From the NCBI GenBank assembly GCA_036267775.1, contig DATAVM010000195.1:1-62441 (forward strand): a DNA stretch of 62,441 nucleotides, given 5' to 3'. Within the stretch, counting starts at the first letter, position 1. The number at the start of each line of letters is the position of its first letter. Below are positions 23,581 to 62,425 of the stretch, one piece after another. This DNA comes from Gemmatimonadales bacterium (GTDB lineage: Bacteria > Gemmatimonadota > Gemmatimonadetes > Gemmatimonadales > GWC2-71-9). The translations under genes were made by a program, and so were the position numbers. Under the pieces are notes generated by a model. It saw only the letters and a list, made by a program, of their open reading frames with translations, was not told the origin of the DNA and searched no databases.

Positions 23581-23901
23581 CTATGAGCCGAGCGCGTCCG
23601 GCGAACTGAGCAGCTGCCCCGCAATCCGGTCCTGCACCTCCGGCGTGTCGTAGGCACCGCTCGCCACCCGCTGAGCAATCGCCTTGAGGCGCTCGGGATC
23701 GAGCGTTCCCGAAGGCACGGCATCCGTGCCGGTCAACGCCGCCGCCGCAGGCGACAGGTCGAGCTGGTCGGCGGCAGCGACCTCGGTGCGCGGCTTGGCC
23801 GGCGTGGTGTCGGCGCTGATCGCTTCACCCCGCAGGGTCTCATCGGCGCGCGACAAGCCGGGCCGCGGCATGCCGGGGGAGTTCAGCGGATCGATCGCCA
23901 T
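23581..23901 (-). CDS. flgM: anti-sigma-28 factor FlgM
   Basis: 106 aa. C-terminal ERLKAIAQRVASGAYDTPEVQDRIAGQLL is typical of FlgM. GAGGAGG 7 nt upstream of the ATG. Confidence 0.8.
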   Translation of the reverse strand: MAIDPLNSPGMPRPGLSRADETLRGEAISADTTPAKPRTEVAAADQLDLSPAAAALTGTDAVPSGTLDPERLKAIAQRVASGAYDTPEVQDRIAGQLLSSPDALGS

Positions 23902-23975: not shown

Positions 23976-24004
23976 TTATCGGTCGATGCGGCGAGCATCT
24001 GAGC
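23976..24004 (-). promoter_or_regulatory. sigma-28 (FliA)-type promoter of flgM
   Basis: Minus strand GCTCA-N17-CCGATAAC (tgagc 24000..24004, ttatcgg 23976..23982). Same architecture as three other sites in the window. Confidence 0.6.
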
Positions 24005-26948: not shown

Positions 26949-28058
26949 CTAGTGGAGCAGCGACAGCACCTGCGATGCCGACTGGTTGGCCTGTGCGATC
27001 ATGGCCATGCCCGCCTGCTGCAGGATGTTGTACTTGGTGAACGCGGTGGTCTCCGCCGCCATATCGGCGTCACGGATGGTCGACTCCGCCGCGGTCGTGT
27101 TCTGGGTGATCGTGTCGACGTTGGTCTGCGCAAAGCCGATCCGGCTTTCCGCGGCGCCGATCGAACCGATCGCCGTGTTCACGTTGTCGGTCGCGGTGTC
27201 CAGCGCCGTCAACGTCGCCTGCGCGCTCGCGGCCGTGTTCAGGTTGAGGCCGGTGAGTCCCAGCGCCGACGTGGTCAGGTTGATCGAGTTGAGCGAGATC
27301 AGGTCGTTGCCGGCATAGTTGCCGCTGGACGAGACCATGAACTTGCCGCCCGAGCCGCTGACGACGACGTTGCCGATCGCCGCGTCCTGCACGTAGGCGT
27401 TGCCGGTGCTGATCGAGAGGCCGAACGCGGAGAAATCCAGCGTCTGCGCACCGCCCGCATTGCTGATCGTCTGCGACAGCGTGCCCGCAGAGTTGGTCAT
27501 GGTCAGCTTGTGGGTGGTGGTGTTCGCGGTGATCGTGTACGTGTCCGCCGCGGCGCCGTTGGTCTGGATCGGGCCGACGCTCGCAACGGCGAGCACCGTG
27601 CTGTGGCCAGAGGTGGATGCCGTGTCCACCGTTGCGCCGAACGTGCCATTGATCAGACCGCTGCCCTGGTACTGCGTGGTGGCAGAGATCCGGTCAATTT
27701 CCGCGCTGAGCTGCTGGAACTCCGCGTCCAGCTTGCCGCGCTGCGAACCGATCGAGTCCGAGTTGGACTCGGTCGCCAGTTCCTTCATCCGGTCCAGGAT
27801 GGTGGAAATGGTGTTGGTGGCACCGTCGGCGATCTGCAGCATCGAGTTCGCCTGCGAGGCGTTGCGCGAGGCAGCCGTCAACGACTGCGCCTGGCCGCGG
27901 AGCTTGTTCGCGATCGCAAGGCCTGCCGCGTCATCGCCCGCACGGTTGATCCGGAAACCCGACGACAAGCGCGCGATTTCCGTGTTGAGGTTCATTCCGG
28001 CCGCTGAGGTGTTCAGCAGCGCGACGTTCGCCCCAATGTTCGTCTGAATACTCGCCAT
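26949..28058 (-). CDS. fliC: flagellin
   Basis: MASIQTNIGANVALLNTSAAGMNLNTEIARLSSGFRINRAGDDAAGLAIANKLRGQ... and C-terminal ...TAFTKYNILQQAGMAMIAQANQSASQVLSLLH. Confidence 0.93.
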   Translation of the reverse strand: MASIQTNIGANVALLNTSAAGMNLNTEIARLSSGFRINRAGDDAAGLAIANKLRGQAQSLTAASRNASQANSMLQIADGATNTISTILDRMKELATESNSDSIGSQRGKLDAEFQQLSAEIDRISATTQYQGSGLINGTFGATVDTASTSGHSTVLAVASVGPIQTNGAAADTYTITANTTTHKLTMTNSAGTLSQTISNAGGAQTLDFSAFGLSISTGNAYVQDAAIGNVVVSGSGGKFMVSSSGNYAGNDLISLNSINLTTSALGLTGLNLNTAASAQATLTALDTATDNVNTAIGSIGAAESRIGFAQTNVDTITQNTTAAESTIRDADMAAETTAFTKYNILQQAGMAMIAQANQSASQVLSLLH

Positions 28059-28144: not shown

Positions 28145-28173
28145 TTATCGGTCGGGAGGGTCCTACCATGAGC
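28145..28173 (-). promoter_or_regulatory. sigma-28 (FliA)-type promoter of fliC
   Basis: Minus strand GCTCA-N17-CCGATAAC (tgagc 28169..28173, ttatcgg 28145..28151), in the fliW-fliC gap. A 5' stem-loop GGCGACC-acaucg-GGUCGCC (28136..28117) lies just downstream. Confidence 0.65.
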
Positions 28174-28175
28174 GA

Positions 28176-28622
28176 TCAGGGGTGGAGCGTGGGGCGGGGC
28201 GGGGCGAGGAGACGTTCCAGGTCGAACGGAACTGCCGTGCCGTAGGGGCTGTCGGTCTGCACCACCTGGCGCCCCAGATTGAGCACCATGTCGATCAGCA
28301 CCGGCGCCTGCAGGTTGGCCGTGGCCGGCCCGGTTCCGTGCGGCAGCGTCACGATTGCCCAGCTCTCTGCCGTGCCGGCGTGCGGTGGTTCCGGCAGTGT
28401 CGCACGTTGCACCATGAGAAAGGTCAACGCCAGATCGTCGAGTGACTGCAGCCACGCCAGCGCGGGCACGTTCGCCTGAAAGAGTGTAAAGCGCTGGGCG
28501 TCGGGAAAGCCGGGAATGCCATCGGCAAATACAATGACGTCCTCGTCGGCGACGAACGCGCGGCCAAAGAGCCGAGTGACGACCCACGTTCCTGACGACA
28601 CATTGGGCAATACTGCGGTCAT
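28176..28622 (-). CDS. fliW: flagellar assembly factor FliW (CsrA antagonist)
   Basis: 148 aa. VIVFADGIPGFPDAQRFTLF and TANLQAPVLID match the FliW family. AGGAAGGA upstream. Confidence 0.9.
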   Translation of the reverse strand: MTAVLPNVSSGTWVVTRLFGRAFVADEDVIVFADGIPGFPDAQRFTLFQANVPALAWLQSLDDLALTFLMVQRATLPEPPHAGTAESWAIVTLPHGTGPATANLQAPVLIDMVLNLGRQVVQTDSPYGTAVPFDLERLLAPPRPTLHP

Positions 28623-29598: not shown

Positions 29599-29627
29599 TT
29601 ATCGGGTAATTTTGTCCGACCCTGAGC
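29599..29627 (-). promoter_or_regulatory. sigma-28 (FliA)-type promoter of flgL-fliW
   Basis: Minus strand GCTCA-N17-CCGATAAT (tgagc 29623..29627, ttatcgg 29599..29605), 34 nt upstream of the flgL ATG. Confidence 0.6.
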
Positions 29628-49697: not shown

Positions 49698-50536
49698 ACG
49701 ACCAGGCCGCCAGGCTTCGCCTGGTGTCGCGTGATACCACGCCGTTCCTGGCCGCGGAGGGCGGCCCTGCCACGCCGGCACTCGTGGTCGGCAGCGGCAA
49801 GGGTGGCGTCGGCAAGTCGCTCATTGCCATCGGGATGAGCGCCGCACTCGCCGCGCGCGGCCGCAAGGTCCTGCTCGTCGACGGCGATCAGAACCTCGGC
49901 AATCTCCACGTGCTGCTCGGCGTGCGCCCCGTGCTCACGCCCGCGTCGCTGCTGCACGACGCCGCAACACCGGAAGAGTTGCTCATTGCCGTCGCTACCA
50001 ATCTCTGGCTCCTGCCTGCCGATTCAGGGTCCGAGAGCATGCACGGCCTCGGCGCCACCGACCGCGCGCGCCTGCATCGTCGCATGACGACCGTCTATCG
50101 CAACTTCGACACGGTCATTGTCGATGCCGCAGCCGGTCTGGACAGTGCGTTGCGCTGCGTGTCCTTGCATGCGACGCGACTGGTGGTGGTCACCGTCCCC
50201 GAAGCTACCGCACTGACCGATGCGTACGCGCTGATGAAGATCGTGCATGGCCGACTGCCGAGCTTGCCGCTCGATGTCGTGGTCAACTCGGTGCGCGGTG
50301 AGCACGATGGCACCACCGCGTATGCGCGTCTGGCCGAGGCGGCGCAGCGCTTTCTCAATCGGACGCCGCGTTATCTGGGAAGTGTTCCGGAAGATGCAAC
50401 GCTGCGCGGCGTGGCCAGCACACCGCACCGTCTGCTCGGACCTGCCGAGGGTGGCATGGCGCTCAGCGCGATCGCACGGATCGCGCTGGAAGAACTTGAC
50501 GCTCCGGTCCCGGCATCCGTGGCGGCGGTGTCGTGA
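49679..50536 (+). CDS. flhG: MinD/ParA-type ATPase FlhG (FleN/YlxH)
   Basis: VVGSGKGGVGKSLIAIGMSAALA deviant Walker A, VLLVDGD. Start ATG 49679 or GTG 49694. Confidence 0.88.
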   Translation: MGWGRVNDQAARLRLVSRDTTPFLAAEGGPATPALVVGSGKGGVGKSLIAIGMSAALAARGRKVLLVDGDQNLGNLHVLLGVRPVLTPASLLHDAATPEELLIAVATNLWLLPADSGSESMHGLGATDRARLHRRMTTVYRNFDTVIVDAAAGLDSALRCVSLHATRLVVVTVPEATALTDAYALMKIVHGRLPSLPLDVVVNSVRGEHDGTTAYARLAEAAQRFLNRTPRYLGSVPEDATLRGVASTPHRLLGPAEGGMALSAIARIALEELDAPVPASVAAVS

Positions 50537-51300
50537 CGTCAACCCGGCCGCCGTCCGCGCGCGAAGCGCTCTGGCAGCGTTACCACGATACGGGCGACGC
50601 CGAGGCGCGCGCGGAGCTGCTGTCGCAACATCTGGGGCTGGTGCATCACGCGGTGCGACAGATTGCCGGGCGCGTGGGCGATGCTGTTGGTCTCGAGGAC
50701 TTGATTGGTGCCGGATGTCTGGGGCTGCTGCGCGCGTTCGAGGGCTTTGATCCGTCCCTGGGAGTGGCGTTCACCACCTACGCCACCCAGCGCATTCGTG
50801 GCACCGTGCTCGATGAATTGCGGTCGGCCGATCGTTTGCCGCGCAATCCGCGAGCGCAGGCGCGTGCCGTGCAGCGCGCTACCAACGCCGTGGCGCAGCG
50901 GCTGGGCCGCAAAGCCACGCCAGGTGAGGTCGCCGCGGAACTGTCGGTCGATCTGCCCACCTACTGGGAGTGGTTTTCGCTGGCGGAGAGCGGCGCCACC
51001 GTCTCACTCGACACGCCCCGCGCCGGCGACGATCACACCATGCGCCTGGCCGACCAGCTCCCCGATCCCAATGCGGCGGTGCCCGGTGCTACGCTCGAGC
51101 TGGCAGACCAGCGGACGCTGGTGCGCGAAGCGATCGCCGACCTGCCGGAGCAGCAGCGCGTGGTCCTGGCGCTCTGCTACGATGAAGGATTGAGCCTGCG
51201 GCAGATCGCCGAGGTGCTGCATGTGACTGAATCACGGATATCGCAGGTGCGATCGGCTGCCCTGCGCGCATTGCGCGCCCGTCTTGCGGAGAACGCCTGA
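50533..51300 (+). CDS. fliA: flagellar sigma factor FliA (sigma-28)
   Basis: 255 aa. Regions 2-4 (HLGLVHHAVRQI, FTTYATQRIRGTVLDELR, LSLRQIAEVLHVTESRISQVR). Confidence 0.93.
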   Translation: MTSTRPPSAREALWQRYHDTGDAEARAELLSQHLGLVHHAVRQIAGRVGDAVGLEDLIGAGCLGLLRAFEGFDPSLGVAFTTYATQRIRGTVLDELRSADRLPRNPRAQARAVQRATNAVAQRLGRKATPGEVAAELSVDLPTYWEWFSLAESGATVSLDTPRAGDDHTMRLADQLPDPNAAVPGATLELADQRTLVREAIADLPEQQRVVLALCYDEGLSLRQIAEVLHVTESRISQVRSAALRALRARLAENA

Positions 51301-56653: not shown

Positions 56654-58024
56654 ATGGCCGGCCTCGTCGATCTTCTCAGTATCGCGCGCAGTGCGCTCAT
56701 GACGCAGCAGCGGGCACTGAATACCACGGGCACCAACATCGCCAACGCTTCGACACCCGGCTACGTGCGCCAGACGCTCAACCTCACCGAGGCTGTGCCG
56801 CAGAACACGCCCAACGGCCCGCTCGGTCGCGGCGTGACCGACACCGGTGTCACCGCACAACGCGACGTCTTTCTCGATGCGTCGTACCGCGAAGAGCAGG
56901 GCACCTACAACGCCGCCAATACGCTGAGTGGCATGGTGAGTCAGGTGCAGACGCTCTTCAACGAGCCCACCAGCGGCGGCCTGGGCGCTTCGATCGATAC
57001 CCTGATTGGCGCGTTTGGCGATCTCGCCAACGATCCGTCGAATGGTGCCGTCCGCAACACCGTGCAGGCCGATGCCCAGCAGGTGATCCAGCAATTCCAC
57101 TCGCTCGACGATGGGCTCAACGACACCGTTGGCAATGCCCGTCAGCAGTTCAGCGCGGATGTGGATCAGGTCAATCAGATCGCGACACAGGTGGCGGAGC
57201 TCAACAAGCAGATTGTGGCGCAACGTGCCGGCGGGCACGACGCCCCCGATCTCGAGACCCAGCGCGGCGTGCTGCTCGATCAGCTCTCCACGCTGGGCGA
57301 CACGCGCGTCCTCGATCGCACGGATGGCTCGGTGGGCGTGGTCTTTGGCGATACGATGCTGGTCGACAGCGGCACGGCGCAGCAGTTTTCGGCGAGCGCC
57401 AGCGGCAGCGGGATGGTCGCCACGGTGGTGGGAGACACCCGCACGGTGCAGATCTCCAGCGGCTCGCTCGCCGGGCTCGAGAACATCATGACCACGGCAA
57501 TCCCCGACGTCCGCGCCGGGCTCAACCAGTTGAGCGCAGCGTTGGTGAGCGCCGTCAATACCCTGCACGAAACCGGCACCACGCCCGGTGGAGCGACGGG
57601 CACGGACTTCTTCGATCCCGCCGGCACCACTGCGGCGACCATCGCGCTCTCGAGCACGGTGGCCGCGTCGCCCAGCAACATCGCCGCGGGCGCCAGCTCC
57701 GCGTCGGGCGACGGCAGCATCGCGCTGGCACTCTCCCAGCTTGGCACTGCCACGAATGCGAGTCTGGGCGGCATCTCGATTCCCAACTTCTACGATTCTG
57801 TCGTCACCAAACTCGCGACTACCGTGCAGAACGCGCAGGACGACGCCTCCGCCGCGCAGACCATATCGGCGGGGCTGTCCGCACAGCGCTCGTCGGAAAC
57901 CGGTGTGTCGACCGACGAGGAAATGATCGCGCTGATCACGCAGCAGCAGGCGTATACGGCGGCGGCGCATGTGGTGACCGTGGCGAATGACCTGATGACC
58001 GACGTGCTCAACATGGTGCAGTAA
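56654..58024 (+). CDS. flgK: flagellar hook-filament junction protein FlgK (HAP1)
   Basis: ORF 56009.. trimmed to ATG 56654 (MAGLVDLLSIARSALMTQQRALNTTGTNIANASTPGYVRQ). C-terminal GVSTDEEMIALITQQQAYTAAAHVVTVANDLM. Confidence 0.92.
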   Translation: MAGLVDLLSIARSALMTQQRALNTTGTNIANASTPGYVRQTLNLTEAVPQNTPNGPLGRGVTDTGVTAQRDVFLDASYREEQGTYNAANTLSGMVSQVQTLFNEPTSGGLGASIDTLIGAFGDLANDPSNGAVRNTVQADAQQVIQQFHSLDDGLNDTVGNARQQFSADVDQVNQIATQVAELNKQIVAQRAGGHDAPDLETQRGVLLDQLSTLGDTRVLDRTDGSVGVVFGDTMLVDSGTAQQFSASASGSGMVATVVGDTRTVQISSGSLAGLENIMTTAIPDVRAGLNQLSAALVSAVNTLHETGTTPGGATGTDFFDPAGTTAATIALSSTVAASPSNIAAGASSASGDGSIALALSQLGTATNASLGGISIPNFYDSVVTKLATTVQNAQDDASAAQTISAGLSAQRSSETGVSTDEEMIALITQQQAYTAAAHVVTVANDLMTDVLNMVQ

Positions 58025-58290
58025 TGCTGGTCCTCAACCGGCGCGAGGGGCAGGCGGTCATTCTCGATGGCGACATCAAGGTCGTGGTGCTGTCGTGGGA
58101 TCGGCGCGGCGTCCGCCTCGGCATCGAAGCGCCCGAAGCAAAGACGATTCTCAGGGAAGAACTGATTCAGGAAGTCGTGGCGGAAAACGAACGGGCGCGT
58201 GCGGGAGATGACACCGCGGCGCTCGTGGCGCGCTTGCCCGGCCTATCGCCCCGCGCTGCTCCGGCTCCGGGCGGGACGCCACTGCCGTAG
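58024..58290 (+). CDS. csrA: carbon storage/translational regulator CsrA (FliW-partner type, extended C-terminus)
   Basis: MLVLNRREGQAVILDGDIKVVVLSWDRRGVRLGIEAPEAKTILREELIQEV. ATG overlaps the flgK TAA (TAATG). Confidence 0.92.
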   Translation: MLVLNRREGQAVILDGDIKVVVLSWDRRGVRLGIEAPEAKTILREELIQEVVAENERARAGDDTAALVARLPGLSPRAAPAPGGTPLP

Positions 58291-59061
58291 CGAAAGCACA
58301 AAGCGGGCGCCACGCTCGCTGGTGGGATCGTAGCGCAAGTCTCCACCCATCTGCACTGCCAATTCACGAGCGACGGTGAGACCGAGTCCCAGATGGTCGC
58401 CCTTGGCGCGCGTGGTGACAAACGGATCGAAGGCGCGCTTGCGCACGCCCGACGACACGCCCGGCCCATCATCCTGCACCACCAGGTAGATCAACTGATC
58501 CTGCTGCACCGCTCCAATGCGGAGTGTGGCACTCGCGCTGCTGGCCATCGCGTCGCACGCATTGCTGACCAGCGCAAACAGAATCTCCTGGATTGCGCCA
58601 TAGTCACCAGCCACCGGTGGTAACTGCCGTGAGACATCGGTCAGCACCTTGAGCTTGCAATGTCCGGTGGTCCGCTGGGTGAAGGGAGTGATCCACGCCA
58701 CCGCATCGGCCAGCGAAATCGGCCCGTCGGTCGGTGGCTCCGCAAACGCCGTCAGCGCCTCGATCTGCGCCTGAAGCGTCGCGTCAGCCCGCAACATCGC
58801 GTCGTTGAGCTTGGTCGGAATGGACGTGGACTGCACCTTGCCGGCGCGACCGAGACTCATGGCCTGCGCCACGGCGCGCAACTGCTCCGCGGCCACACTC
58901 GCGAGCGCCTGGCCCATGCGGGCGCGATGCGCGGCACGCAGCAGCTCAAAGCTCGCGAGGGTCGGTGGAGCCGTCGTCGCGGCACGACCGCGCCCCGCCG
59001 GATACTTGGCGGACTTGGGGCGACGGGGAGCCGGGACGCGCTTGCGGCGGGTGGGCCTCAC
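58243..59061 (-). CDS. histidine-kinase-like ATPase lacking the canonical phospho-acceptor His
   Basis: N, G1, F and G2 boxes present (ILFALVSNACDAM, VQDDGPGV, FDPFVTTR, GLGLTVA). The H-box position reads MGQALASVAAEQLRAV. GTGA overlap with the upstream gene. Basic N-terminal 30 aa. Confidence 0.75.
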   Translation of the reverse strand: MRPTRRKRVPAPRRPKSAKYPAGRGRAATTAPPTLASFELLRAAHRARMGQALASVAAEQLRAVAQAMSLGRAGKVQSTSIPTKLNDAMLRADATLQAQIEALTAFAEPPTDGPISLADAVAWITPFTQRTTGHCKLKVLTDVSRQLPPVAGDYGAIQEILFALVSNACDAMASSASATLRIGAVQQDQLIYLVVQDDGPGVSSGVRKRAFDPFVTTRAKGDHLGLGLTVARELAVQMGGDLRYDPTSERGARFVLSLRQWRPARSRSSAGR

Positions 59062-60200
59062 TGAATATGCCGCCGGGTCAGCACGCCATGCACGATCGGA
59101 TCGGTGGCGTGTCGCTCGCGGATCAAACGCAATGTGGTCGGGGTCAGCACGGTGCCGGCTGACAGCAGTTTGACCCCGGAAGCGGTGTGTAGATCGGTGT
59201 CGAGCATCAAGCCCTCGGTCAGATGGTCCACGCGGATGGCTTCCACATGTAAGCCCGATAGTGCATCGGGGCCACGAGAAACAATCAGCTCCAGAGCGGA
59301 CACAACCACAGGGTCGTAATACGTCCCGCTATAACTCCACACCTTTTGGTGATTCTCACCAGTGTTCAATATGTTGACGTTCAATTCCTGACGCAAGAGA
59401 TCGTTAGCCGTCCTCAGAATGCGCGACCGAAGTGGAATCTGACCTGCCGCCGTTCCAACTGGAATCCCGGACCCGTCCCAGTTGGCGGCCATTCCGTCGA
59501 TCAGTTCCGCGGTCTCCGTCAGGAAGGGAATCCGCCCAAGCACCCGTGCCGACGCGGCCGGGATCTGGGCGGAGCCCAGGGGTTCGGTGGGGAGCGTGAG
59601 TCGGCCGACCTCATGAAGGCGGGCGGCGCGCACCATATCCATATGCATTACCACGGGGACGTCCAACTCCGTCGCAACCACACTCGCCAACTCGCCCAGC
59701 GTCTCGCCCCGCGCCCGTGAGCCCGGATGAATCGAGTCCTGCAGCGTCACCAGCAGCTCGGTGAGCTGCTCGGCCAGCACCACGCGATAGTCGTTGGCGG
59801 ACTGGAGATCGCGCGCGTCGGCCACCCGGCGCTCGCACGCCCGGACGCACGCGGCGAGCTCCGCCTGATCCACCGGATGCGTGAGCACCGCGTCGATGTC
59901 CATTTCCCACGCCATCGAGCGAATGCCGTGACTTTCCGGCGCGCTCAATAGAATGAACGCCAGCATTTCTTCGTTCGGGAGTTCGCGCTTGCGATTGAGC
60001 AGCGCCAGGCCGTCGGCTCCGTTGACGCCTTCGTCGCACACCACGATGGTGATGCGGCCATGATCGAGCGTGCGCCAGCCATCGGCTACGTCGCTCGCCG
60101 TCTCGACGCGATAGCCGCTGTGCGCGTTCAGCGCAAAGGCCATGGTGTCACGCCGGTGCGTGTGGCCATCAATCACGAGCACGCTGGTGAGGGATTTCAT
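59058..60200 (-). CDS. receiver domain plus degenerate HD-GYP-like domain protein
   Basis: ORF trimmed to ATG 60200 (ATGA overlap with the motB stop). REC-like MKSLTSVLVIDGHTHRR...IVVCDEGVNGADG...LTHP. HD-GYP-like AARLHEVGRLTLP...MAANWDGSGIPVG...IPLRSRILRTAND. Confidence 0.8.
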   Translation of the reverse strand: MKSLTSVLVIDGHTHRRDTMAFALNAHSGYRVETASDVADGWRTLDHGRITIVVCDEGVNGADGLALLNRKRELPNEEMLAFILLSAPESHGIRSMAWEMDIDAVLTHPVDQAELAACVRACERRVADARDLQSANDYRVVLAEQLTELLVTLQDSIHPGSRARGETLGELASVVATELDVPVVMHMDMVRAARLHEVGRLTLPTEPLGSAQIPAASARVLGRIPFLTETAELIDGMAANWDGSGIPVGTAAGQIPLRSRILRTANDLLRQELNVNILNTGENHQKVWSYSGTYYDPVVVSALELIVSRGPDALSGLHVEAIRVDHLTEGLMLDTDLHTASGVKLLSAGTVLTPTTLRLIRERHATDPIVHGVLTRRHIQ

Positions 60201-61039
60201 TGGCTCGCCGGTGCGGCCGGCGGCGGCGGCGGCGGGGGGGGTGGCGATGCGGCGGTCGTGCTGGTGCCGTCGTCCTTGGGAATGCTCACGAGAATTGTCA
60301 CGCGCCGGTTCTGCGCGGCATACGGATCGCTCGGCACGCGCGGATCGCGGTCGGCAAAACCGCGCACGGCCTGGATCTGCTCTTCCGTCACACCGCCATC
60401 GTTGAGCAGCCGGCGTGCGGCATTGGCGCGATCGGCGCTCAGTTCCCAATTGGTGTACGCGTCGTGCGCCGGATACGGCCGGGCATCGGTGTGACCTTCG
60501 ACCGTCACCGGATACGTCGCGGCCGCGAGCACTGCGCCAATTGCCTGGATCAGCTTGGCCGCGCGCGGCAGCGGACGCGGACTGCCGGTGGCAAAGAACA
60601 CACCGTTGGAATCCTCGAGCAATGAAATGCGGAGACCATCCGGTGTCATTTCAATCGCGACATGGCCCTTGAGTCCCGCCAGTGCCGCGTCCTTGTCCAG
60701 CGCCTGGCGGATCTGTTCGGAGAGCTGCAGCATGCGATCGCGGTGGCCGTCGGCGGGCTGAATCTGAATGGTGGGATGCGTCGGAACCATCGACTGTCCC
60801 TGGCCGGGCATGATCGAGTTGCCGAATTCCTTGTCGCGCCCCAGCGGATCCTGAAAGTAGCCGGCGATTGCCGAGCGAATCTCGGAGCTCTGCGTGATGA
60901 GCCAGAGCACCAGAAAGAGCGCCATCATCGACGTCATGAAGTCTGCGAACGCGACCTTCCAGGCACCACCGTGGTGGCCCTTGTGCGCGCGCTTCTTCTT
61001 GACGACGCGAATGATCGGCGCTTCACGTGCAGACTTCAC
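60197..61039 (-). CDS. motB: flagellar stator protein MotB
   Basis: GGAWKVAFADFMTSMMALFLVLW (channel Asp present), OmpA-like C-terminal domain (EGHTD...NWELSADRANAARR), poly-Pro tail. Confidence 0.92.
   Translation of the reverse strand: MKSAREAPIIRVVKKKRAHKGHHGGAWKVAFADFMTSMMALFLVLWLITQSSEIRSAIAGYFQDPLGRDKEFGNSIMPGQGQSMVPTHPTIQIQPADGHRDRMLQLSEQIRQALDKDAALAGLKGHVAIEMTPDGLRISLLEDSNGVFFATGSPRPLPRAAKLIQAIGAVLAAATYPVTVEGHTDARPYPAHDAYTNWELSADRANAARRLLNDGGVTEEQIQAVRGFADRDPRVPSDPYAAQNRRVTILVSIPKDDGTSTTAASPPPPPPPPPAAPASQ
60218..60241 (-). repeat. simple-sequence tract: C8 plus (CCG)5-6 on the coding strand, at the motB 3' end
   Basis: Plus strand reads ccggcggcggcggcggcgggggggg. Encodes the MotB poly-Pro tail, about 20-40 nt before the motB stop / downstream ATG. 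Confidence 0.9.
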
Positions 61040-61902
61040 GCGGCCTTCTCGAGCTTGGTCGTCTTGACGGCCGTTTCCATATCCACAAAGCTCGGCCGGT
61101 CTTCCGCGGTGATCGCCTTGCGCGCGAATTCCACCGCGACCATGGGCGGCAGGTTCTTGGCGAGCGCTACGATCGCGGCCTTGAGCACAAAGTAGAGGCG
61201 CGCCTCTTCGGCATTGCGGCCTTCCATGTTGGACGCAAGCGGCGCGACAAAGCCGTACGACAGCAGAATGCCGAGGAACGTGCCGACGAGTGCGGAGGCG
61301 ACGTGGTGGCCGATCTGTTCAATCGGGCCGCCGAGGCTCTGCATGGTGACCACGATGCCGAGGACGGCGGCGACAATGCCGATGGCGGGCAGCGCGTCGG
61401 CCACGCGTTGCAGCGCGGCGACGGTCTTTTCGTCGGCATCGTGATGGACCTCGATCTCCATCTCGAGCATCGATTCCAGGTCGAACGGCGGCACGCTGCC
61501 CACGAGCACGGTGCGGAGGGCGTCGCAGAGGAATTCGACCGCGTGATGATGGCTGAGGAAGTCGGGGTATTTCTTGAGGATGCTGCTCTCGTCGGGGCGT
61601 TCGATGTGGGATTCGATCGCGATCAGGCCGTCGCGGCGTGCGGTCTGGAAGAGCTCAAAGAGGAGCTTGAGCACGTCGACGTAGAAGGCGCGCTGCGATC
61701 CGCCGCCCTTGAACGTCTTGGGGATCTTGATCAGGAGCGCCTTGAGCACGCTGGGCGGGGTCGAGACCAGGACCGTGCCGAGGCCGGTGCCGCAGATCAC
61801 CACCCATTCCGACCACGCCATCATCACGGCGAACGGTCCGCCGGCCATGGCGAAGCCGCCGAAGACGGCGACCAGTACCACCACGAATCCCACAATCGCC
61901 AT
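61036..61902 (-). CDS. motA: flagellar stator protein MotA
   Basis: MAIVGFVVVLVAVFGGFAMAGG... like the enterobacterial MotA N-terminus. ATG 61902 preferred over GTG 61938 because the sigma-28-type -10 lies at 61945..61951. Confidence 0.9.
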   Translation of the reverse strand: MAIVGFVVVLVAVFGGFAMAGGPFAVMMAWSEWVVICGTGLGTVLVSTPPSVLKALLIKIPKTFKGGGSQRAFYVDVLKLLFELFQTARRDGLIAIESHIERPDESSILKKYPDFLSHHHAVEFLCDALRTVLVGSVPPFDLESMLEMEIEVHHDADEKTVAALQRVADALPAIGIVAAVLGIVVTMQSLGGPIEQIGHHVASALVGTFLGILLSYGFVAPLASNMEGRNAEEARLYFVLKAAIVALAKNLPPMVAVEFARKAITAEDRPSFVDMETAVKTTKLEKAA

Positions 61903-61944
61903 CACAGGCCGGCTCCAGTCCGTCGGGGGGAGAGTCACGGGCTG

Positions 61945-61973
61945 TTATCGGTCGGATTGTTGTCACCCTGAGG
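61945..61973 (-). promoter_or_regulatory. sigma-28 (FliA)-type promoter of the motA operon
   Basis: Minus strand CCTCA-N17-CCGATAAC (tgagg 61969..61973, ttatcgg 61945..61951), in the 46-bp gap after the lipoprotein gene. Confidence 0.6.
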
Positions 61974-61984
61974 GGGCGATCAGG

Positions 61985-62425
61985 TTACGGCAGCCTCCGG
62001 CACGGAATCGGCCGACTTGCCATGGGTGTGCGGCGCCAGCGGTAGCAGTCGACGGGGCGGGGAGCGGGGACCAGGCGGACGTAGCGCGGCCAGGGGTTCA
62101 TGGCGGTGAGGATGGCGAGGGAATCGGGCTCGAGGGGCGGATCGGGGATCCACATGTCAAAGACGCCGTCGAGGCCGTAGTCGGAAATCTGGGCCCTGGG
62201 ACTTGGGGCTTGAGGTGTGAGACTGGAGACGTCAGGTGTGAGACGTGAGACCAGAGGGGTGATCGCGAGTGCGGTGCCGTAGTGCTTTGCGGCGTCGCCG
62301 GTGGGGTGCAGGACTTGTACGACCACTGGTATCGGCGGCGCGGTCTTGCTGCAGGCCGCCAGCGTTGTGGTCAAACTCGCGATCACGACGGTCCGGCGGA
62401 ATTGCATCATCACCCGTTTTGTCAT
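61985..62425 (-). CDS. hypothetical lipoprotein
   Basis: MTKRVMMQFRRTVVIASLTTTLAAC lipobox; 146 aa; no family recognised. Confidence 0.55.
   Translation of the reverse strand: MTKRVMMQFRRTVVIASLTTTLAACSKTAPPIPVVVQVLHPTGDAAKHYGTALAITPLVSRLTPDVSSLTPQAPSPRAQISDYGLDGVFDMWIPDPPLEPDSLAILTAMNPWPRYVRLVPAPRPVDCYRWRRTPMASRPIPCRRLP

Follow-up and report, generated by a model that had tools for sequence, protein, structure and literature searches.

In a 62,441-nt stretch of DNA from a Gemmatimonadales soil bacterium (contig DATAVM010000195.1, positions 1 to 62,441, referred to here in its whole length as the window), four open reading frames (ORFs) on the minus strand (58243-61973) encode the stator proteins MotA and MotB, a regulator with receiver (REC) and HD-GYP-like domains, and a small kinase-like protein. 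The regulator belongs to a hitherto undescribed family whose genes are tied to motAB throughout Gemmatimonadota and Candidatus Eisenbacteria. It is probably a dedicated motor regulator, the module it forms with the kinase-like protein appears to be genuinely wired to the stator, and the two proteins very probably do not constitute a working phosphorelay. We propose that the regulator is non-enzymatic and stator-dedicated and that its ancestral control by phosphorylation has, in this lineage, been replaced by a phosphorylation-independent kinase-like partner, an explanation to which we give about even chances. A preliminary description of this DNA had remarked that the arrangement was not recognizable from described motAB operons. 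A literature search (HD-GYP, motA/motB, stator, degenerate domains, Gemmatimonadetes) agrees with this, having returned no description of a motAB-linked regulator family of this kind. What is new is the combination, as each element separately has precedent (NosR/HnoD, DivL/NifL and CbrR).

Linkage to motAB and a FliA-type promoter motif

The motA ORF, encoding the stator channel protein, is listed from a GTG at 61938 (61036-61938, minus strand) and matched Pfam MotA_N and MotA_ExbB, while motB (60197-61039, minus strand), encoding the peptidoglycan-anchoring stator protein with its plug, matched MotB_plug and OmpA; together these are the domains of a proton-type stator. The MotB of the window scored 213 bits against PRK09041, under the cut-off of 277 for that model, and was present elsewhere only on one 1.4-kb contig. 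The regulator gene (59058-60200, minus strand; Pfam Response_reg and HD_5) encodes 380 aa, in which a pseudo-receiver and a pseudo-HD-GYP domain are followed by a conserved C-terminal domain, and the His-less kinase-like gene (58243-59061, minus strand; Pfam HATPase_c only) encodes 272 aa from a GTG start. At each of the three junctions, the stop and start codons overlap by four nt: GTGA at 61036-61039 for motA and motB, ATGA at 60197-60200 for motB and the regulator gene, and GTGA at 59058-59061 for the regulator gene and the GTG of the kinase-like gene. This chain of overlaps, reported in the preliminary description and confirmed by a check of the coordinates, suggests that the four genes are transcribed as one unit. 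We also noted that the C terminus of MotB (60197-60260), immediately ahead of the overlapping regulator start, is a nine-proline run (PPPPPPPPPAAPASQ).

A pattern scan using one genome per species recovered 79 loci for the regulator family, all in metagenome-assembled genomes of Gemmatimonadota or Candidatus Eisenbacteria save for a few labelled "bacterium" or "uncultured bacterium". An additional locus bears the label Burkholderiaceae, but its flanking matches do not differ in coordinates, identities or scores from those of an Eisenbacteria locus that the same study produced. MotA and MotB were encoded directly upstream, on the same strand, in 69 of the 70 loci with at least 1.9 kb of upstream sequence, in keeping with the earlier expectation that the linkage of motAB to the regulator would be conserved. 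We take the regulator to act on or with the stator because it is almost never found away from motAB and would be made together with it. The sole member with a full flank but without motAB upstream (L029, 6001-7164) is also without a downstream kinase and has a fully canonical receiver.

A FliA-type promoter ahead of motA, as claimed in the preliminary description, is well supported by the position and conservation of its motif. A -35-like CTCAGG (61967-61972) and a -10 element ACCGATAA (61945-61952) are separated by a 14-nt spacer (61945-61972 overall, minus strand), and this CTCAGG-N14-ACCGATAA is situated 43 nt 5´ of a motA ATG. The motif CTCA-N17-CCGATAA occurs at four sites in the window, all on the minus strand, compared to none in 100 shuffles. 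The other three sites precede a flgL-like gene (site at 29599-29626), the flagellin gene (site at 28145-28172, gene at 26949-28058) and a 106-aa ORF without a Pfam match (site at 23976-24003, ORF at 23581-23901), and the window also encodes a FliA-like sigma factor (50533-51300). Among the 69 motA upstream regions of relatives, CCGATA[AC] was found in 64 (about 1 in shuffles) and both boxes, the second being TCAAG-like or TAAT-like and correctly spaced, in 55 (about 0.1 in shuffles). No match was obtained with the strict E. coli sigma-28 consensus (TAAA-N14-16-GCCGATAA), so the consensus used here was derived from the window and its relatives, and a generic sigma-70 scan detected nothing in the operon region.

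The true start of motA is probably the ATG at 61902 (M13) rather than the listed GTG, since the NCBIfam model MotA1, which motA matches at 353 bits (cut-off 304), begins at residue 13; this start would leave a leader of roughly 40 nt after the promoter. A lipoprotein-like ORF on the same strand (61985-62425), with a signal peptide and LAAC lipobox and no Pfam match, ends 12 nt 5´ of the motA -35 box. Its third-position G+C of 0.78 equals the gene-calling threshold of 0.78, and it may or may not be a real gene; read-through from it into the motA operon may occur.

Residues lost and kept in the two regulatory proteins

The motif strings quoted in the preliminary description are all found in the window. 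The receiver-like domain of the regulator (aa 5-120; 59841-60188, minus strand; codons verified) scored 43.5 bits with Pfam Response_reg (cut-off 30.2), and Foldseek matched the AlphaFold model of the regulator (pLDDT 89) to REC domains with target-normalised TM-scores of 0.8-0.9. Based on phmmer alignments to PleD and other regulators and on the columns of the family itself, the five canonical receiver positions are occupied by D11, G12, D56, S86 and H108. D56 is at the phospho-acceptor position, G12 replaces the second acidic residue (D13 equivalent; VIDGH in the window versus LVDDD in canonical family members) and H108 replaces the conserved Lys (K109 equivalent). The earlier reading, a phospho-Asp that is kept with an acidic pair reduced to DG and a Lys changed to His, is thus correct. 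In the close relatives P0109 and P0110 the phospho-Asp is itself replaced, by S or A.

The degenerate HD-GYP domain (aa 158-315; 59256-59729, minus strand) matched Pfam HD_5 at 58.5 bits (cut-off 27.2), and Foldseek matched the model to the HD-GYP structures PA4781, PmGH and DvhD at probability 1.0 (including 4r8z and 4mcw). We aligned it with canonical HD-GYP proteins recovered in the same search as the relatives of the regulator (P0174-P0181). The HD pair is H196-E197, HHE is A238-A239-N240 and GYP is G-I246-P, as first described, and only H196 remains of the metal ligands; the first E/H pair and the third His are gone. Across the family, the Tyr position of GYP is I, S, V, M, H, F or Q, among others. 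For the final Asp, said to be changed to ND, the string is present, but D267 is invariant across the family and adjoins the column of the last metal-binding Asp, making the loss ambiguous; D267 may still serve as the last Asp of the metal site.

The metal-ligand losses are common to all of the regulator's roughly 65 protein relatives and to all 79 genome loci, and they extend to members whose receiver is canonical and whose kinase contains the His. The degeneracy of the HD-GYP domain is, by this distribution, ancestral to the whole family. Because the site is dead even beside a canonical receiver and a His-kinase, it did not co-degenerate with the phospho-sites. The co-degeneration of both partners invoked in the preliminary description is consequently not borne out in that form, as the HD-GYP loss is family-wide and ancestral and the ATP site of the kinase-like protein (below) is not degenerate. 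We read the regulator as a non-enzyme because nearly all metal ligands are lost in every family member; it is predicted not to be a phosphodiesterase of cyclic di-GMP (c-di-GMP). The residue analysis contradicts the public gene calls, which give it that label, and an active phosphodiesterase was rejected given the absent metal ligands.

The scaffold around the former metal site has been strongly conserved (PG...R, AA.LHE.G, WDG[ST]G.P, G.IPLRSR.LR...D and G..YDP). Of the family's 38 near-invariant columns, the pseudo-HD-GYP domain accounts for 24, the C-terminal domain for 13 and REC for one, and the residues include R164, R258, R260, R263, W241, D242, D267 and Y295. With four invariant Arg, a Trp and a Tyr in the former active site, nucleotide binding by this pocket is plausible. 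RpfG, PmGH and PA4781 share the HD_5 fold and the WDGSG.P, IPL.R and YDP scaffold, and RpfG and PA4781 also share the REC plus HD-GYP architecture. The regulator differs from all three in being without their metal ligands (the E/H, the HD Asp, the third His and HH) and in its variable GYP Tyr, while R258 and R263 are specific to the regulator family and absent from canonical HD-GYP members.

The remaining ~65 residues (aa 316-380; 59061-59255, minus strand) form a family-specific C-terminal domain, with the consensus L..GM.LA.DL.T.SGVKLL.....R....P across its near-invariant columns, that is as conserved as the former active-site pocket. Searches of Pfam with this domain gave no meaningful match, and no PilZ at E ≤ 10, and a large protein search returned only short fragments of its own family. 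Against PDB sequences, the sole match to a profile of the domain was to residues 832-868 of the Francisella RNA polymerase beta', a hairpin, at a marginal E = 0.04. The matched segment resembles the beta-beta' module motif known from inserts of RNA polymerase (PMC2939025), a resemblance that we treat as a lead only.

In the kinase-like protein, a basic disordered tail (aa 1-33) precedes a DHp hairpin (aa 34-107), and these are followed by a CA, or ATP-binding, domain (aa 117-260; 58282-58713, minus strand; codons verified). HATPase_c was matched at 67 bits and Pfam HisKA gave no match; the DHp hairpin was evident from the AlphaFold model (pLDDT 80; helices 34-75 and 83-107, followed by the CA domain) and from Foldseek, for which the top matches were the DHp-CA structures of HK853, ZraS and CckA, with DivL and NifL also matched. 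As initially noted, the boxes of the ATP lid are retained, and they are invariant among relatives: N167 (N), D197-G199-G201 (G1), FDPF with F211 (F) and G225-G227 (G2). An earlier generalization, that every catalytic signature looks degenerate, was therefore too broad, since these four boxes as well as D11, D56, S86 and D267 of the regulator are kept, although the other degenerate motifs quoted are present.

No His is found at the H-box of the kinase-like protein (58885-58890, minus strand, for A58-E59) in either of two alignment registers. A profile of 31 kinases from the same genomic position, which matches the window protein end to end at 171 bits, places Glu59 in the phospho-His column and the conserved L-R and Q that follow on L61, R62 and Q66; among the seven clade relatives, that column is Asp in six and Gly in one. 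A profile alignment to ZraS using PDB sequences instead sets the His on A58 and the Glu on E59, the register of the preliminary description. The orthologue register is favoured because it has more anchors, such that the reported replacement of the phospho-His by Ala stands as to the loss, with the replacing residue more likely Glu59 than Ala58. That seven of the eight members have an acidic residue in this column suggests that the state is fixed and has not arisen by random decay.

We considered whether the His of the AAHRARM segment, H45 (58927-58929, minus strand), could be the H-box His, and rejected this candidate, as in the 31-kinase profile it falls 14 residues before the H-box column, at a position that is mostly Asp or Asn in orthologues. 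All members of the His-less clade carry H45, which is already found in relatives that retain the H-box His (L010-L012 and P0199). Public gene calls begin the kinase-like gene at Met49 (P0001, of 224 aa, and P0197 in a relative), a start that would cut off the basic tail together with His45 and the upper end of the DHp helix (58915-59061). This short start was rejected because an F.LLRAAHR.RMG segment, an N-terminal RRK motif and the 4-nt overlap with the regulator gene, kept in five relatives, are conserved. The basic tail (58963-59061), with the RRK motif and a conserved [KR]-Y, is found in all members of the His-less clade; Arg-rich tails in some CheY-like proteins bind c-di-GMP, as mentioned in PMC12448109.

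Receiver state and the downstream kinase varied together across loci. For the 26 loci with all five canonical receiver residues, the gene that follows is a His-kinase in 18, a His-less kinase in none and no kinase in five, with contig ends in three; these His-kinases are small, with an RGxAHDLR H-box. Where the receiver has no phospho-Asp (44 loci), a His-kinase was found in 13, a His-less kinase in one, no kinase in 26 and contig ends in four. The 11 loci that keep the Asp and have lost other receiver residues, the window included, have a His-kinase in two, a His-less kinase in six and no kinase in three, with no contig ends. Kinase-free loci often have csrA directly 3´ of the regulator gene.

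The His-less kinases that could be placed (window, L001, L003 and L083-L087) all directly follow the regulator gene, usually with the 4-nt overlap, and share the neighbours csrA and flgK. They make up a small clade: among 1.8 billion representatives, a search with them met about seven clusters at 50% identity before generic kinases were reached. The clade has been kept in at least eight loci at 35-44% identity with L61, R62 and Q66 of the DHp and all ATP boxes invariant. We also observed intermediates (L010-L012) in which the receiver is without the phospho-Asp and Lys and the kinase keeps the H-box His alongside His45. Finally, in a related small kinase (P0258), Gln occupies the column of the H-box His (GVAQELRN) and the F box is degraded; it represents a second, independent loss of the phospho-His in these small kinases.

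A proposed stator-dedicated regulator and its alternatives

In the mechanism that we propose, motA, motB, the regulator gene and the kinase-like gene would form one late (sigma-28) flagellar operon. The Arg-rich former active-site pocket and the C-terminal domain would be the working core of the regulator, through which it would regulate the stator or motor, or serve as their adaptor, without enzymatic activity, perhaps gated by a ligand for which c-di-GMP would be the obvious candidate. Ancestrally, a small sensor-less histidine kinase from the gene just 3´ would have switched this output by phosphotransfer. In the lineage of the window, the kinase His would have become Glu or Asp and the receiver would have lost its second acidic residue and Lys, leaving the kinase-like protein, which has kept its DHp docking helix and ATP-binding site, as a phosphorylation-independent, nucleotide-dependent partner of the pseudo-receiver. 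Continued partnership is suggested because, outside the ATP site, no part of the kinase-like protein is better conserved than the receiver-docking region of the DHp. The phosphorylation-independent, stator-wired module of the preliminary description is supported by the phospho-site losses, the synteny and the conserved promoter, though not by the universal co-degeneration on which it had partly been built. The functions suggested there for the module (a nucleotide or c-di-GMP sensor, a brake or clutch, a stator-assembly factor) are candidate roles.

The kinase-like half of this mechanism would operate in the manner of DivL (Caulobacter) and NifL (Azotobacter), kinase-like proteins that signal by partner binding without phosphotransfer. 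All share the DHp-CA fold and a retained nucleotide-binding domain. DivL differs in having Tyr at the His position and long PAS arrays, and NifL in keeping its His, whereas the protein described here has Glu or Asp in the His column, is minimal (a basic tail plus DHp-CA) and has as its presumed partner a pseudo-receiver encoded by an overlapping upstream gene.

Several points weigh against the proposal. Contact with MotA, MotB or FliG, the partnership between the two proteins, ligand binding and co-transcription are all predictions from sequence, and synteny and co-regulation would fit equally well with control of a c-di-GMP network timed to motor completion. The kinase need not act solely via the receiver of the regulator, because 13 loci pair a receiver without the phospho-Asp with a His-containing kinase; these and the other locus counts are uncorrected for shared ancestry. 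In addition, since D56 is kept in six of the seven His-less clade members and H45 is invariant there, unconventional phosphorylation has room.

A more specific version of the stator-dedicated regulator, which we put forward tentatively, is that it is a PilZ-independent receptor for c-di-GMP or a related nucleotide that directly binds MotAB or FliG and gates torque or stator occupancy, with the His-less kinase adding an ATP/ADP input on energy state through contact with the pseudo-receiver. It would then be a stator-embedded brake or sensor across Gemmatimonadota and Eisenbacteria, the acidic residue sitting permanently at the phospho-His position. YcgR, MotI/DgrA and FlgZ, which are PilZ proteins serving as c-di-GMP brakes and clutches of the flagellum, and CbrR similarly are soluble proteins that link second-messenger signalling to the motor, and to our knowledge none has been described as a fixed part of a motAB operon. 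The pair in the window differs in that Pfam detected no GGDEF domain in either protein and no PilZ match was found for either at E ≤ 1, which led us to reject a PilZ-type brake; ligand binding here is a candidate property only. CbrR, a Campylobacter response regulator that carries a diguanylate cyclase annotation, binds c-di-GMP and acts as a repressor of motility (PMC8779298).

An unlikely alternative is that the regulator is an adaptor like HnoD (Shewanella) or NosR (Burkholderia) that binds a genuine diguanylate cyclase or phosphodiesterase rather than the stator, its position beside motAB reflecting co-timing only. In PMC12570481, which cites Plate and Marletta 2012, degenerate HD-GYP response regulators are reported to act on such enzymes, and NosR and HnoD are thought to work by protein contacts and to affect motility and biofilm. 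The regulator resembles them in several respects: REC is followed by a catalytically degenerate HD-GYP domain, the partner is a sensor-less histidine kinase, the best NCBIfam match of the regulator is the NosR model and its conserved WDGSG.P loop is the equivalent of the GYP loop. A HAMP-GGDEF gene also lies near motA in the close relative L001 (2885-4195, ~1 kb away on the opposite strand). However, the NosR match (NF053512) reaches only 104 bits against a cut-off of 400, and the neighbours in the window are motAB, csrA and flgK, with no H-NOX or NosP gene in the operon. HnoD and NosR, in contrast, work with H-NOX or NosP sensors and are encoded apart from motAB, and they have a canonical phospho-accepting receiver and no extra C-terminal domain. 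The almost universal placement right after motB, often with overlapping codons and in two phyla, is also tighter than co-timing would need.

The same synteny and sigma-28 evidence that we cite for a stator-dedicated regulator could be claimed for a stator assembly, localisation or stabilising factor, which would help MotAB to insert, dock or stay rather than brake it, and the translational coupling suggests a stoichiometry matched to MotB. We consider this quite unlikely, because the REC, HD-GYP and DHp-CA domains and the ancestral canonical phospho-sites point to switchable regulation instead of a constitutive chaperone, and the models show no membrane segment in either protein, both of which are predicted to be soluble.

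More doubtful is a cryptic phosphorelay, in which the kinase-like protein would autophosphorylate on another residue, for example His45, and pass the phosphate to Asp56. The intact ATP boxes and the retention of H45 and D56 in the His-less loci noted above, H45 having been in place already in L010-L012 and P0199, speak for such a relay. Nevertheless, H45 lies ~4 helical turns above the H-box column, probably beyond reach of the ATP lid, the receiver is without its Mg-binding second Asp and its Lys, and L003 has Ser in the phospho-Asp column. That the regulator and kinase-like genes are decaying into functionless pseudogenes is highly improbable: the kinase has been lost altogether in many related lineages, but the ORFs here are intact, the His-less kinases keep invariant DHp and ATP-box residues and their coupling at the divergence given above, the regulator family retains its near-invariant columns and both AlphaFold models are confident.

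Flagellar setting and implications

The remainder of the window, which has a G+C content of 65-70% and nearest relatives among Gemmatimonadales metagenome-assembled genomes, is a complete flagellar cluster. It includes genes for a sigma-54 activator, flgBC, fliE-J, flgDE, fliLMNOPQ, flhBA, flhG, the FliA-like sigma factor, flgF-L, the flagellin gene, fliD, fliS, fliW and csrA. The four sites with the promoter motif, that of motA included, sketch a local sigma-28 regulon consensus, and the 106-aa ORF downstream of one of them is an uncharacterised candidate late flagellar gene. Because csrA is present and the FliW gene (28176-28622) adjoins the flagellin gene, a CsrA-FliW-flagellin circuit probably operates here. 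The csrA gene (58024-58290, plus strand) is convergent with the kinase-like gene (58243-59061, minus strand), and their 3´ ends overlap by 48 nt; convergent overlaps of 27-39 nt were also seen in the relatives L001, L083 and L086. Such an overlap could permit antisense or termination interplay.

PilZ proteins and a few lineage-specific effectors carry the known second-messenger control of assembled motors, which has been studied mainly in Proteobacteria and Firmicutes. If our proposal is correct, a regulator encoded in the stator operon of two little-studied phyla would open a new route into motor control, and its domain would be among the few degenerate HD-GYP domains with an obvious physical target. 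The family would also provide a natural series for the conversion of a two-component pair into a phosphorylation-independent pair, with states ranging from a canonical receiver with a His-kinase, to a dead receiver with no kinase, to a dead receiver with a His-less kinase. In practical terms, public gene calls truncate the kinase-like gene and mislabel the regulator as a c-di-GMP phosphodiesterase, when its family would be a phylum-wide candidate motor regulator.

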